Part shown: positions 9,757 through 24,681 of the stretch, piece by piece
How the letters are laid out: each line of letters begins with the position of its first letter
How positions within the stretch are numbered: position 1 is the stretch's first letter
Source: Candidatus Eiseniibacteriota bacterium
GTDB taxonomy: Bacteria; Eisenbacteria; RBG-16-71-46; CAVPCR01
NCBI GenBank assembly: GCA_963823555.1
Contig: CAWGMA010000002.1
Span: 128,001 to 192,000, forward strand
Reading direction: 5' to 3'
DNA length: 64,000 nt
Notes under the pieces: model-generated
What the model was told of the DNA's origin: nothing
The model's database searches: none
What the model saw: the letters and a program-made list of their open reading frames with translations, nothing else
Position numbers and translations under genes: made by a program

Positions 9757-10754
9757 TCCTGGCCGGCGATGTCGGTGGCACCAAGACCGTCCTCGGTCTA
9801 TTCGCCGAGGAAGCCGGACGTCTGTACGAGTACGCCACGGCCGAGTTCCCGAGTCGGAGCCACCGTGGTCTCGAATCGATCCTCGCCCAGTTCCTCGACT
9901 CGGCGCCGGTGGTCGCCGAGAGGAGGCGGATTCGCTCCGCCGGTTTCGGAGTGGCAGGGCCGGTCATCCAGCGCCGCGTTCAGGCCACCAATCTGCCCTG
10001 GGTGATCGAAGCCGGATCGCTCGAGCGCCAGCTCGGGTTTTCCGTTCATCTCATGAATGATCTCGCCGCCATGGCGCTTGGCGTCGGCGAGCTCGAGCCT
10101 GACGACTTCGCCATCGTGCAGCCGGGGCGGGCCGAGCTCCCGGCCGACGGAGCGGCGGCCATCATCGCTGCCGGGACCGGGCTCGGCGAGGGCATCCTCT
10201 TCCGGGTCGGAGAAGAATGGGTTCCGGCGCCCACCGAGGGCGGACATACCGACCTCGGCGCGCGGAACGAGGAGGAGATCGCCTTCCTCCGTTTCCTCAT
10301 CGCCCGCCACGGGCGAGCCGACTACGAGAATGTCCTCTCCGGGCCGGGGCTCATGAACTGCTACCGTTTCACTCACGGTGAAGGGGCGCCGGAGGCCCCT
10401 TCGGACCACCACGCCGACTTGCTCGCCGCCCCGGATCCGCCCGCCGCGATCACGGGATCGGCCCTCGCCGGCTCCTGCCCGGCCTGCGCCCGCAGCTTGA
10501 ATCTGTTCGTCACGATCTACGGCGCCGAGGCCGGGAATCTCGCGTTGAAGACCATGGCTCTGCGCGGCGTCTACATCGGGGGTGGGATCGCCCCCAAGAT
10601 CCTGCCCGCGCTCACCGATGGGCGATTCCTGGCTGCCTTCCGCGACAAGGGAGAGCCATTCTCGACGCTCCTCGCCGGCGTCCCGGTCCGGGTGATCCTC
10701 GATCCGCACTGCCCGCTCCTGGGAGCGGCGCGGGCCGCGGCCGGGAGCCCCTAG
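9753..10754 (+). CDS. glk: Glucokinase
   Basis: LAGDVGGTKT, TNLPW, NDLAA, AAGTGLGE, TEGGH, GGGIAPKI; ATGA overlap with opcA. Confidence 0.95.
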   Translation: MILAGDVGGTKTVLGLFAEEAGRLYEYATAEFPSRSHRGLESILAQFLDSAPVVAERRRIRSAGFGVAGPVIQRRVQATNLPWVIEAGSLERQLGFSVHLMNDLAAMALGVGELEPDDFAIVQPGRAELPADGAAAIIAAGTGLGEGILFRVGEEWVPAPTEGGHTDLGARNEEEIAFLRFLIARHGRADYENVLSGPGLMNCYRFTHGEGAPEAPSDHHADLLAAPDPPAAITGSALAGSCPACARSLNLFVTIYGAEAGNLALKTMALRGVYIGGGIAPKILPALTDGRFLAAFRDKGEPFSTLLAGVPVRVILDPHCPLLGAARAAAGSP

Positions 10755-10901
10755 GCCGCCGGTATCGGGCCGCGAAACGCTCGGGGATCGGCGCCATTCG
10801 CTGAACCCCGCCCGCTCCAGCCGGGATCGCAAAGGTGGGCCTCGACCCCTGAACGTCTGCCCCCTCGCTCCACCCAACCCCGGTCCCCCGGGAGTCAAGC
10901 C

Positions 10902-11969
10902 ATGATCGGTATCGGCAGGGTCTGGATCCGCGTCTTCTTCACGCTCGTGGTCGCCGCTTTGCCGCTGACCGCGCTCGCTGCGGATCGCATCGTCGTTCTC
11001 GAGCACTACACGAACTTCCGCTGAGGCGTCTGCGGGGTGGTGGATCCACCCCTCAAGAGCTGGATCCTGGGCAAGACCGACGTGGTCGCCATCGAGTACC
11101 ACACGTCCTTCCCCTATGCCGGAGATCCCTTCTATCTCGCCAATGTGCCCGAGCAGGAGAACCGGGTCTTCTACAACCAGGTCTTCGCGGCGCCGGCCAT
11201 CCGTTTCGACGGGCCCAACATCCCGACCGCCAACAACCAGACGGCCTACGAGAACCTCTACCAGCAGCGCAAGGCGGCACCGTCGCGCGCGCGAATCGAG
11301 CTGGGCGGGGATTACGATCCGGTGCTCAGGACCGGTGAAGTCACGGCGCGTGTCATCGCCGAATCCGCGATCAGTGGTGATCAGCGTCTGCGCATTGCCC
11401 TGACCGAGAGCGAGATCGACTACGCGGCGCCGAACGGGATCAACATCCACGAGCACGTCTTCCGGCGCTTCGTTCCCGACACGGCGGGAACCGTCATCGT
11501 CTTCTCAGCGCCCTACCCCGATACCATGACCGTGACCCTTCCCTTCACGGTGGAGCCCGACTGGATCGAGACGCATGTCGACCTGGTGGCCTTCCTCCAG
11601 GAGCAGGTCTCGCGCCAGATCGACCAGGGGGCCAAGGTCGGGGTGCTCGACCTGCAGGTGGGTATCAGCGAGGAACCGGCGCCGGCGCCAGCCGCCAGCC
11701 GGCTCCTGCCCGTCAGCCCGAATCCCTTCAGCCCTGGTGCCGAGATTCGCTTCGAGGTCGCCCGGACAGGGCCGATCGAGATCACGGTTCATGATGTGCA
11801 AGGACGGCTCGTCCGCACCCTGGTCGATGCCGTCCACGAGGCTGGCTCGAGGGCCATCGCCTGGGATGGCCGGGATGATTCCGGTCGTGATGCCGGATCC
11901 GGCATCTACTTCCTCAGGCTCGCGACAGCCGGAAGCTCCAGCATCCAGAAGGCCGTGCTGGTGCGCTAG
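10902..11969 (+). CDS. Secreted Omp28/thioredoxin-like protein with selenocysteine (UxxC) and C-terminal FlgD-Ig/T9SS-like domain
   Basis: RBS GGAG, ATG 10902, signal peptide ending ALA, then DRIVVLEHYTNFR-TGA(11022)-GVC in frame with ORF 11037..11969; IEYH, P.IRFDG, ALTES, HEHVFR, LVAFLQ; tail PNPFSP...WDGRDDSG..AGSGIYF. Confidence 0.85.
11034..11052 (+). promoter_or_regulatory. Candidate bacterial SECIS hairpin
   Basis: GGGGTGG-TGGAT-CCACCCC, perfect 7-bp stem; the loop starts 16 nt after the TGA and has G at its 2nd position. Confidence 0.75.
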
Positions 11970-12046
11970 CGCAACCGGCTTCTCGATCCTTTCCTGCCGC
12001 GCTACACTCCCTGCCGGTGGTGGCCGCCGGGGAAGGGAGCTGGCTC

Positions 12047-14999
12047 ATGTCCACACGCGAGGGGCAGCACCCCGCTCGCGTCAGCGCGGCGGCCGCAACG
12101 TTCGGCAAGGCTCAGCTCGATGCGACTCTGGCGCGTCTCCGGCGAGAGGTGCGCGGCGAGGTGCACACCGACGCGCTGAGCCGCGCCATCTACGCCACCG
12201 ACGCCTCCAATTACCGCATGGTCCCGCTCGGCGTCCTGATCCCGCGCGGGCGAGCCGATGTCGAGGCGGCGGTGGCGATCGCCGCCGAGCACGGCATTCC
12301 CCTCCTCCCCCGTGGCGCCGGCACCAGCCTCGCCGGCAACACCGTGGGCGCCGCGCTCGTCATCGACTTCACCAAGCATATGCACCGGGTTCTCGACCTG
12401 GATCCCTCGTCGCGCCGCGTGCGTGTCGAGCCCGGCGTGGTGGTGGGCCGGCTGAACCGCGCGCTAGCGGCCCACGGTCTCGTCTTCGGACCCGATCCGG
12501 CGACCAAGGATCGCGCCGTGCTCGGCGGGATGATCGGCAACAACTCCTGCGGGGCGCACTCGCTCGCCTATGGCAAGACCGTCGACCATGTCGAGGGTCT
12601 GGTGGCCGTGCTCGCCGACGGTAGCTTGATCGAATCCGGTCGCGGCGGCCGGATCGGGGGCGGCGGGCGGGCGCGAGCGATCGCCGCCGAGCTGGAACGC
12701 GTCGGCGCCGAGGTCGCTCCGCTCGTGCGGGCGCGTTATCCGCAGATCCCGCGCCGCGTCTCCGGGCTCAATCTCGACGAGATCGTCCCCGGGACGGAGT
12801 TCAACCTGCCCGGGCTCCTCACCGGTTCGGAGGGCACCCTGGCGGTGACCCTCGAGGCGACGCTGGCCCTGAACCAGCGCCCGCGCCATACGGCGCTCGC
12901 TCTCCTGTCCTTCAGCGACGTGCCGGAGGCGCTCGATGCCGTCCCTGAGCTTGTCGACCGTCATCGACCCGCCGCGCTCGAGCTCATCGATCGCACCCTG
13001 ATCGAGAGCGCGCGGGCCCGTCCCCGATTTCACCATGCTCTGCGTCTGTTCGACGCCACGGCCGGAGGCACGCTCCTCGTCGAGGCCGCCGGCGACTCGG
13101 CGGCCGAGGTCGGCGAGCGAGCGCGGGCGATCGGGAGGGAGAAGCTTCCCGGGCTCATCGCCGCGACGGTTCTCGTCGATCACGAGGAGCAGGAGGAGGC
13201 CTGGGCGCTTCGCGAGTCCGCGCTCGGTCTCCTGTGGAACGTGCGCGGCGAGGCCAAGCCGGTGGCTGGGGTCGAGGACACGGCCGTTCCGCCCCGGCGG
13301 TCTCGGCGACTACGTGCGCTCCTTCCGCGAGATCCTCCGCCAGCACGGCACCGAGGGCAGCTTCTACGGCCACGCTGGCGATGGCTGCTTGCACATTCGT
13401 GTGTTGCTCGATCTGAAGGCGGACGGGGGTCCGAAGAACCTGCGCCGGCTCACCGAGGAGGTGAGCGACCTCGTCCTCGCGCATGGCGGATCGCTCTCGG
13501 GCGAGCACGGTGACGGCATCGCGCGCAGCGAGCTCCTGGGGCGCATGTTCGGTGCCGAGCTCGTCCAGGCCTTTCGCCGCGTGAAAACCCTCTTCGACCC
13601 GCATTCGATCCTGAACCCAGGAAAGATCGTCGATCCCTATCCGCTCGATTCGCACCTGCGTTTCCATCCCGAGTACCGGTTGCGCGAGCCGGCCACGGTC
13701 TTCGATTGGTCCGCGGCGGAGGGATTCGGGCGCGCGGTGGAGTCATGCATCGGCGTCGGCAAGTGCCGGAAGATCGATGCCGGGACCATGTGCCCATCGT
13801 ACATGGTCACGCTCGACGAGCTGCACTCGACGCGCGGGCGCGCCAACGCCCTGCGCGAGGCCATGCTCGGCGAGATCCTGGGTGGCGGTGGCGACCCGCG
13901 CCACCTGGGGATCGCCGACCCGCACCTCCGGGATGCGCTCGACCTCTGTCTGTCCTGCAAGGCCTGCAAGCGCGAGTGCCCGACCGGTGTCGATCTGGCG
14001 CGGCTCAAGGCCGAGGTCCTCCATCATCAGCACCAGGTTCACGGCGTGCCCTTTCATCATCGGCTCTACGCCCGGATCGGTGCCTTCTCCGCCCTGGGGA
14101 TGGCGGCACCCGCTTGGATCAACGCGGTGGCCGCCTTTCCACCCGCTGGCCGGCTGTTGCGCGCGATCGCCCGCATCCATCCCGCGCGCAGCGTGCCACG
14201 CCTTGCAGCGCGGAGCTTTCGCGCCGACTTCGCCCGGCGCGTGACAGGAGCCGCCCCCGCCGCCGGCAGCAGCCGGGTGATCCTCCTCGATGACACCTTC
14301 AACAATTACCAGGAGCCGCAGATTCTCGCGGCGGCGGTCGAGGTGCTGGAGCGGGCGGGCTTCTCCGTTTCGCTGCCGGCGGAGCGGGTCTGCTGCGGCC
14401 GCCCCTTCTATTCCCTGGGTCTCCTGGACAGGGCGCGCGCGGCCGGACGCCATCTCCTCGAGGTGCTGGGCCCTGAGATCGATCGTGGCACGCTCGTCGT
14501 CGGATGCGAACCGAGCTGTCTTCTCACCTTCCGCGACGAGCTGCCCGAGCTCGTGCCGGGTCCCCGCTCACGCGCCCTCGCCGGCCAGGCGCGACTCCTC
14601 TCCGAGCTGCTCCTCGAGGCCGACTTCCAGCCGGGACGTCTCGCCGCCCGGGCCCTGGTGCATGGCCACTGCCACGAAACGGCGCTCGGCGGAGCCGAGG
14701 CCCTGAACGCCGTCCTGGGTCGCGTCGAGGATCTCGAGTTCGAGGTCCTCGATGCGGGTTGCTGCGGCATGGCTGGGGCCTTCGGCTATGAGCGGGATCA
14801 CTATGACCTGTCGATGGCGATCGGGGAGCGGGTCCTCCTGCCGCGCGCCCGCGATGCCGCCCCGGGGACCCTTCTCATCGCCAACGGCACCTCCTGCCGG
14901 CACCAGATCCGGGATGGGGCCAAGCGGCAGGCGCTGCACGTCGCCGAGGTGCTGGCCCGCTGTACGCTTTCGACAGTGGCGCCGGCGCCCGGCAATTGA
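12047..14999 (+). CDS. FAD-binding and Fe-S/CCG-domain oxidoreductase (YdiJ/GlcD-GlcF-like); one frameshift at ~13292
   Basis: YATDASNY, PRGAGTSLAG, GGMIGNNSCG, GSEGTL, SGEHGDG, CIGVGKC, CLSCKACKRECP, CCG motifs; one extra C in CCCC 13292-13295 joins two ORFs. Confidence 0.9.
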
Positions 15000-22331: not shown

Positions 22332-24542
<2,211 letters not shown>

Positions 24543-24681
24543 GAACCGTGTCCTCCGACGCGATGGGGTGAGACCAGGCAGGGATGCCCGGGGATCGGCT
24601 TCGAGTCCGCGGGCGGCGGCCGTGCGCGGATCCAGGGCTGAGACCAGCCCCGGAGTCCGTCTCACGGGACGCAAGGATCCG

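Follow-up and report, generated by a model that had tools for sequence, protein, structure and literature searches.

The gene at positions 10902..11969 (+ strand) of the window, a 64,000-nucleotide stretch of a Candidatus Eiseniibacteriota genome (here G000), is, judging from its own sequence and that of its relatives, a real selenoprotein gene that is systematically truncated in public protein sets. Its in-frame TGA at 11022-11024 is almost certainly read as selenocysteine (Sec, U). We favor, with somewhat better than even confidence, a model in which the product is an exported thioredoxin-like selenoprotein of the HBP35/Omp28 type that would act as a thiol-disulfide oxidoreductase at the cell surface, which it would reach by a type IX-like route.

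Translation with TGA as selenocysteine gives a single frame of 355 amino acids from ATG 10902 to a TAG stop at 11967-11969, in which U41, in the context LEHYTNFR-U-GVC, is the sole recoded codon. A Shine-Dalgarno-like GGGAG (10890..10894, + strand) lies 7 nt 5' of the ATG, where the preliminary description of this DNA had placed a ribosome binding site, a function that its sequence suggests. That description had also put the TGA at codon 41, in frame with a 310-aa ORF begun artificially at 11037, and these coordinates are correct. The 310-aa version starting at GTG 11037 appears both in a mechanical ORF list and as the public protein, and the GTG GTG at 11037..11042 (+ strand), which lies within the SECIS element described below, is an erroneous gene-caller start; standard gene callers do miss the true start, as had been claimed. 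The best 38 protein matches each reach a query coverage of at most 87%, and the alignment rows shown begin 3' of the TGA. The family is represented in public protein sets by forms that lack the signal peptide and the active site, all of these best 38 matches being shortened, and because its public proteins are cut short of the active site, the selenoproteomes of the phylum are undercounted.

A trivial origin of the TGA, either by sequencing or assembly error or by a recent nonsense mutation, is hardly credible, as is the related suggestion that the true gene is an antisense 552-aa ORF (9798-11456). Apparent assembly frameshifts do occur nearby (12017-14999) and in a paralogue at C4:605850, but an independent contig from public data (X2, record 7; 10962-11165) covers the TGA and the hairpin with 0 differences, and the TGA is shared by all orthologous loci that cover the site (see below). 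Orthologues and contig together refute an error at this codon, for which a check in raw reads had been proposed. The TGA was outside the coverage of three of the four sequencing runs compared; one RNA-run contig covers 11762-11954 only and provides no evidence of transcription or read-through. The antisense ORF is a shadow frame, with stops interrupting its register in 7/16 full-length orthologue rows.

One line of evidence for recoding is the conservation of the TGA. All 18 non-redundant orthologous loci covering the site, drawn from relatives and metagenomes at >=40% identity (range, 41-100%), keep the TGA; two further loci, which do not cover it, were left out. More distant Cys paralogues carry TGC or TGT in the column of the TGA, the first position of xxxC, and the in-frame UGA is therefore aligned with a conserved Cys of homologues, the pattern by which selenoproteins are recognized. 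The placement of the TGA on the first (attacking) Cys of a thioredoxin CxxC motif, put forward when the gene was first described, agrees with these codons, as does the expectation that homologs would have either Cys or TGA at the position. The genome (4.62 Mb, 92.5% complete, 67% GC) also encodes the means of decoding: selA, selB, and selD score above their cut-offs, a tRNA-Sec (selC) is present, and selD has an internal TGA of its own. All four genes had been named as a check on the reading, and all were found. Among the six genomes holding the closest TGA orthologues, five have selA, and the one without a selA match is 81% complete. The preliminary description had listed findings that would speak against its reading (TGC, TGT, or TGG in the reads, a genome lacking selABCD, or homologs with neither TGA nor a conserved hairpin), and none of these was encountered.

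TGA is the commonest stop codon in the genome, ending 358 of 697 long ORFs (TAG, 310; TAA, 29), so the standard code is in use and a reading of TGA as Trp or under another genetic code is ruled out. The same count lends something to the view that this TGA is a true stop and that the product is a 310-aa protein starting at GTG 11037 or 11040. So do the GTG or ATG found at the second of these sites in 17/17 distinct orthologue rows, the SD-like TGAGG present in 7/17, and the internal-start forms of 27 and 29 kDa that hbp35 of Porphyromonas gingivalis produces, according to the available text of PMC2907840. We nevertheless consider a true stop very improbable. The 40 codons 5' of the TGA specify a leader and then the first thioredoxin strand, no stop occurs within the last 10 of them in 17/17 rows, and a stop arising by chance would be a mixture of TGA, TAG, and TAA (358, 310, and 29 in the genome), whereas TGA was observed in 18/18 loci. 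Moreover, the conserved GTG coincides with the SECIS loop base, and neither U41 nor C44 would be part of the short form. Some internally started product may be made in minor amounts alongside the full-length protein. Synonymous and non-synonymous counts 5' of the TGA (181 vs 599 pair differences) came without a null and were not used as evidence.

The second line of evidence is a hairpin immediately 3' of the TGA, which we interpret as the upper stem-loop of a bacterial SECIS (11034..11052, + strand). Its 7-bp stem is formed by arms at 11034-11040 and 11046-11052, and the loop, UGGAU, begins 16 nt after the TGA with a G in loop position 2; hairpin, spacing, and loop G are all as first reported. 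Stability does not distinguish this hairpin from chance (z = -1.30; 24/200 shuffles fold as well), and we rejected it as stand-alone evidence. Covariation does, strongly: in an alignment of 17 different orthologue rows, pairing holds in 96.6% of cells and 5/7 pairs have changed on both sides, a level reached by 0/500 shuffles, while slid controls are 40-69% paired. The conservation in homologs that had been anticipated for the hairpin is thus evident. The conserved TGA and the covariation of the hairpin exceed chance; the hairpin by itself does not. In one covarying pair, the second base of codon 46 is matched with the third (wobble) base of codon 49, a Pro codon in 16/17 rows; by rows, the pair is U-A in 11, C-G in 4, G-C in 1, and G-U in 1. 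CCA is rare among the Pro codons of the genome (1,568 of 28,693), which argues that the wobble base of codon 49 follows its pairing partner.

The accessible part of PMC13188914 describes a bSECIS model with a stem of 4-16 bp, a loop of 3-9 nt, a G in the first two loop positions, a distance of 16-37 nt from the UGA, and an MFE of <= -7.5. The hairpin of this gene, with its UGGAU loop at +16 and -19.5 kcal/mol, fits that model. As we coded it, the filter is loose and passes 66/66 TGA copies of the family, 15/35 Cys copies, and 94/150 ordinary TGA stops; given how many Cys copies and ordinary stops also pass, we rejected it as a diagnostic. With the loop confined to 16-21 nt, a window picked after the data had been seen, a G-loop hairpin follows 63/66 TGA copies, 9/35 Cys copies, and 39/150 ordinary TGA stops. 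From established bacterial Sec decoding, SelB would, we are highly confident, bind the hairpin and insert Sec41.

A first genome-wide UxxC/CxxU scan returned 344 candidates, mostly spurious, and was replaced by a dicodon model that looks for coding-like sequence on either side of a TGA. The TGA of this gene ranks first of the 119 genome-wide candidates of that scan; the model is incomplete, in that the 90 of 119 rows listed do not include the second UxxC paralogue. Ten other likely Sec codons were noted in the genome, at C1:1632372(+), C1:1638085(+), C4:69366(+), C4:74539(+), C2:649882(-), C2:668598(-), C3:333396(+), C4:717067(-), C1:418494(+), and C4:476853(-), with SelD alone confirmed by family search. 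From their motifs, we take the other Sec candidates to be TlpA-like, formate dehydrogenase, HdrA (two), AhpF-N-like, Prx-like (two), GrdB-like, and UshA-like proteins. The TlpA-like candidate is preceded by 912 open codons.

The protein opens with a predicted Sec/SPI signal peptide (residues 1-26; 10902..10979, + strand), read from the sequence: by eye, the leader is basic and then hydrophobic, ends in an A-L-A cleavage motif, and has no lipobox Cys. By hydropathy, 63/66 TGA-bearing family copies have a hydrophobic leader, and the signal peptide of the preliminary description stands on both counts; in the AlphaFold model, residues 5-25 have low pLDDT. Such a leader would, with very high probability, take the chain through the Sec translocon. 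In the model (pLDDT 88.6), a thioredoxin domain is followed by an Ig domain and then by a C-terminal sandwich. The thioredoxin-fold domain (about residues 27-127; 10980..11282, + strand), supported by the AlphaFold model, the HBP35 match, and the alignment, contains U41-G-V-C44, and the invariant columns of the family alignment include UxxC/CxxC and Pro98, which is probably the thioredoxin cis-Pro. It is followed by an Omp28-type Ig-like domain (about residues 128-254; 11283..11663, + strand), supported by PF11551 (36.4 bits vs a cut-off of 34.9, over residues 96-248) and by the Omp28 domain of 2R2C (Z 13.6 over residues 128-254). Residues 266-355 (11697..11966, + strand) form a C-terminal FlgD-Ig / T9SS type A sorting domain matched by TIGR04183 and PF13860.

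The top fold match is HBP35 (5Y1A), with a Foldseek E of 5.8e-15, a Z of 25.2, and an rmsd of 2.5 A over 225 residues at 14% identity. It was found by fold search; a PDB sequence search gave matches to the tail only (FlgD, PorZ, PorU) and was given up as a route to a relative. The thioredoxin domain followed by the Omp28 Ig-like domain is the layout of the HBP35/Omp28 superfamily, for which 10,328 representatives were found at E <= 1e-10, and together with the PF11551 score and the U41-G-V-C44 motif, the fold match substantiates the Omp28/thioredoxin UxxC domain that had been assigned from the sequence. Signal peptide, thioredoxin domain, Ig domain, and C-terminal sorting domain are common to the protein and to HBP35 of P. 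gingivalis. HBP35 differs in having CxxC rather than UxxC, in sharing only 14% of its residues, and in residing in a host with a complete T9SS. Its thioredoxin activity depends on its two Cys, and it is attached to the surface through its CTD, as the available text of PMC2907840 and PMC4674972 states. From fold and motif, it is likely that the Sec41 selenolate would attack a substrate disulfide and that Cys44 would resolve the intermediate; the targets would most likely be disulfides of other exported proteins, reduced or reshuffled outside the cytoplasm. A point against this reading is that HBP35 itself was not found to act in oxidative stress in the accessible part of PMC2907840.

The same relative suggests another role, in which the selenoprotein serves mainly in ligand handling, that is, heme or metal capture or reduction in the manner of HBP35, and not in protein disulfide exchange. 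In HBP35, the part after the thioredoxin motif binds hemin, and the protein supports growth at low hemin (PMC2907840, in the text available). Orthologues retain the Ig-domain His at 183/185 of the present protein, with H183 found in 90% or more of rows. Since UxxC/CxxC is invariant throughout the family and the conserved neighbors include no genes for heme or metal uptake, we regard ligand handling as the main function as improbable and prefer thiol-disulfide exchange.

Where this exchange would take place depends on the tail and on the export machinery. Against TIGR04183, the tail scores 31.4 bits, passing the cut-off of 23; against the Pfam T9SS model PF18962, it scores 20.1 bits, below the cut-off of 27, and the FlgD-Ig model PF13860 fits it better. 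The FlgD-Ig/T9SS-like tail of the preliminary description is accordingly upheld by the first model and falls short of the cut-off of the second. The tail occurs in 242 ORFs of the genome and ends no more than 10 aa from the stop in 235, a C-terminal placement that speaks for a sorting domain and against a flagellar component. By eye, it has a DxxG loop and a terminal-strand Lys resembling the T9SS CTD motifs described in the accessible part of PMC11285876, according to which a CTD may be specific to its species. With an N-terminal leader (by eye and by hydropathy) and a terminal CTD, the protein has the layout of a T9SS type A cargo. It resembles the type A cargo of Bacteroidota in its signal peptide, in a terminal Ig-like domain over the TIGR04183 cut-off, and in the presence of SprA, PorV, and PorU in the genome, and differs in its FlgD-Ig type of tail, in the undetected GldM and GldN, and in the short TWG tail that some orthologues carry. 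This short tail takes the place of the FlgD-Ig/T9SS domain in 5/66 Sec copies (L025, L026, L032, L058, and L060). In the genome, a short (T/S)W(G/S)x(I/V/L)K tail ends 93 ORFs, with 107 occurrences overall in 26,090 ORFs; the TWG tail had no Pfam or NCBIfam match in the proteins scanned.

The outer-membrane side of a type IX system is present. SprA (G000:C1:1891699-1895856), PorV, and PorU pass their cut-offs in the genome, porU adjoining porV (G000:C1:701907-706552), and PorV was found in 31/31 genomes. GldM and GldN were without a match in 11/11 genomes, in a search in which no positive control scored above its cut-off and none responded for GldN; GldK reached 69.5 against a cut-off of 350 in the genome, and PorP/SprF had no match there (92.5% complete) and was matched in 4/11 genomes. 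These results suggest that the genome does not have a complete canonical T9SS; it may use a variant of the system whose motor is different or has diverged. The surface sorting claimed for this protein is thus backed by the outer-membrane components SprA, PorV, and PorU and not by the motor, in which GldM and GldN were undetected and GldK fell below its cut-off; with Gld motor and ring genes not detected, surface delivery is inferred.

The undetected motor gives some room to a different reading, in which the protein is a real selenoprotein oxidoreductase kept in the periplasm or envelope, its FlgD-Ig tail serving for docking or retention within a system divergent from the T9SS of Bacteroidota. 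The undetected GldM and GldN, the low GldK score, the unmatched PorP/SprF, and a tail closer to FlgD_ig than to PF18962 would all suit such a protein, and re-reduction would presumably be easier in the periplasm. We think this unlikely, because SprA, PorV, and PorU pass their cut-offs with porU and porV adjacent, and because the tail is terminal in 235/242 ORFs and, by eye, shares the DxxG loop and terminal-strand Lys of T9SS CTDs as the available text of their description presents them. Export to the cell surface is the likely fate that the sequence predicts: by analogy with HBP35, for which such handling has been shown, the C-terminal domain would be recognized by SprA/PorV and probably removed by the PorU sortase, a step in which we have reasonable but lower confidence than in the chemistry at Sec41.

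The preliminary description had left open whether the family was already catalogued. The kind is, and the gene itself falls below the cut-off of the catalogued model. Sec-bearing Omp28-related UxxC proteins are recorded as NCBIfam NF045500, "Omp28-related selenoprotein," which is GOS_C; in the accessible part of a 2026 review, PMC13188914 (Table 1), NF045500 is entered as "Hypothetical protein GOS_C" with UxxC and one Sec. GOS_C was described by Zhang and Gladyshev in 2008 as 74 Sec and 312 Cys sequences with a thioredoxin-like fold and no assigned function (PMC2398784, in the text available). The present protein is like GOS_C in its thioredoxin-like fold, its one Sec in UxxC just past the first strand, its downstream bSECIS, and the Cys homologues alongside, and the two GOS_C sequences examined (PMC2398784) share its strand-then-U order and open with a hydrophobic leader. 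It thus answers to the description of GOS_C, an Omp28-related thioredoxin-like fold with a single Sec in UxxC. It matches model positions 34-273 of NF045500, with the FlgD-Ig/T9SS tail not matching the last ~100 positions, and scores 25 bits against a cut-off of 200, which was reached by 0/31 Sec relatives (best, 72 bits) and in 0/151 genomes of the phylum. This score marks the gene as a divergent branch of the NF045500/GOS_C kind. The Omp28 lipoprotein family (NF033782; PF11551; 2R2C) is similar in that the Pfam Omp28 model is over its cut-off and the Ig domain aligns at Z 13.6. It differs in score (20.8 bits vs a cut-off of 150 for NF033782), in the leader, which in the present protein has no Cys and no lipobox, in the Sec of the motif, and in the sorting tail that replaces a lipid anchor. 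Assignment to either NF045500 or NF033782 was rejected on score.

An exported, CTD-bearing selenoprotein had been called unusual, and this claim has to be divided. Given the hydrophobic leaders of the two GOS_C sequences, export of Omp28-related selenoproteins is by itself not new. Other bacterial selenoproteins predicted to be exported in Table 1 of PMC13188914, in the part available, include DsbA/DsbG-like proteins, ExtKL, the GSU2204 barrel, the FCYXU TonB-dependent receptor, and MucD-like and trypsin-like selenoproteins; they are alike in having Sec and a family name that implies export or an outer-membrane site, and their folds differ. A T9SS domain is attached to none of those listed, and "T9SS" has 0 occurrences in the available main text of that paper. 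The CTD is the part of the claim that holds, in that no paper on T9SS-tagged selenoproteins was found in a search that is weak on subscription journals. Searches for Omp28 with selenoprotein and for Eisenbacteria with type IX secretion found no paper, and Omp28 with selenocysteine gave Helicobacter only. The BSepDB supplement had no match for GOS_C, Omp28, or Eisenbacteria among the text listed, and a search of the accessible supplement of PMC13326102 was without a match. What appears to be new relative to the GOS_C kind is the T9SS-type tail and a large paralogue radiation in Eisenbacteria.

As judged by alignment and tree, the gene belongs to a radiation of Sec and Cys paralogues in its relatives. 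A profile search found homologues in 38/151 genomes of the phylum, and a single TGA occurs in 69 of the 150 family matches listed (counted by hand, with 23 further matches unlisted). The loci collected hold 66 distinct UxxC copies and 35 CxxC copies, counts that are biased toward TGA because some regions were chosen for holding one. The genome has five paralogues, one UxxC copy at C4:605850, which is 35% identical and has an apparent frameshift downstream in the assembly, and CxxC copies at C4:420962, C4:423501, C4:714654, and C3:520443. Elsewhere the copies are more numerous: one genome (G116; L080 and L103-L106) has 9 Sec copies among 13 matches, with UxxC paralogues in tandem arrays, and another (G096; L122) has three Sec copies and one Cys copy within 16 kb. 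In the quick tree, built on 96 domains (5 of 101 rows, shorter than 170 aa, were dropped, and the tree holds no GOS_C sequence), the clade of the gene is 14/14 Sec with an SH-aLRT of 98, and at least 9 Sec/Cys changes are needed, 5 of them forced by well-supported branches. A Gemmatimonadota genome has a UxxC Omp28-like gene (L068:10601-11659) near a CxxC paralogue, and the Sec form of the Omp28-like gene is thus not confined to Eisenbacteria.

Taken at its widest, the radiation could reflect a cell-surface selenium redox system of Eisenbacteria, in which HBP35-like UxxC enzymes, up to 9 per genome and with repeated Sec/Cys switches, are served by a stripped-down T9SS (SprA, PorV, and PorU with no Gld motor) through two interchangeable labels, the FlgD-Ig and TWG tails. 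We offer this picture tentatively and hold it to be doubtful as a whole. If it is true, these would be the first selenoenzymes shown as T9SS cargo, and surface delivery, if true, would place selenium chemistry beyond the outer membrane and imply a T9SS-like route without a recognizable Gld motor. Without surface delivery, the result is a sound annotation fix within a known selenoprotein superfamily. In addition, the fold match links the function-less GOS_C group to the characterized HBP35, which makes a direct assay available for that group.

The genomic surroundings gave no functional clue. The neighbors zwf/opcA/glk upstream and an FAD oxidase downstream are common to close kin only (3-4 of 15 loci), and an operon-based assignment of function was set aside. 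The FAD-linked oxidase 3' of the gene (12017-14999) is split in two frames, 12017-13513 and 13035-14999; in a same-genus genome (L063) it is a single ORF of 991 codons, and the split is probably an assembly frameshift. Farther along the window, a gene at 22332-24674 (- strand), which we take to be glutamine-synthetase-like, likewise lies in several frame-shifted pieces.
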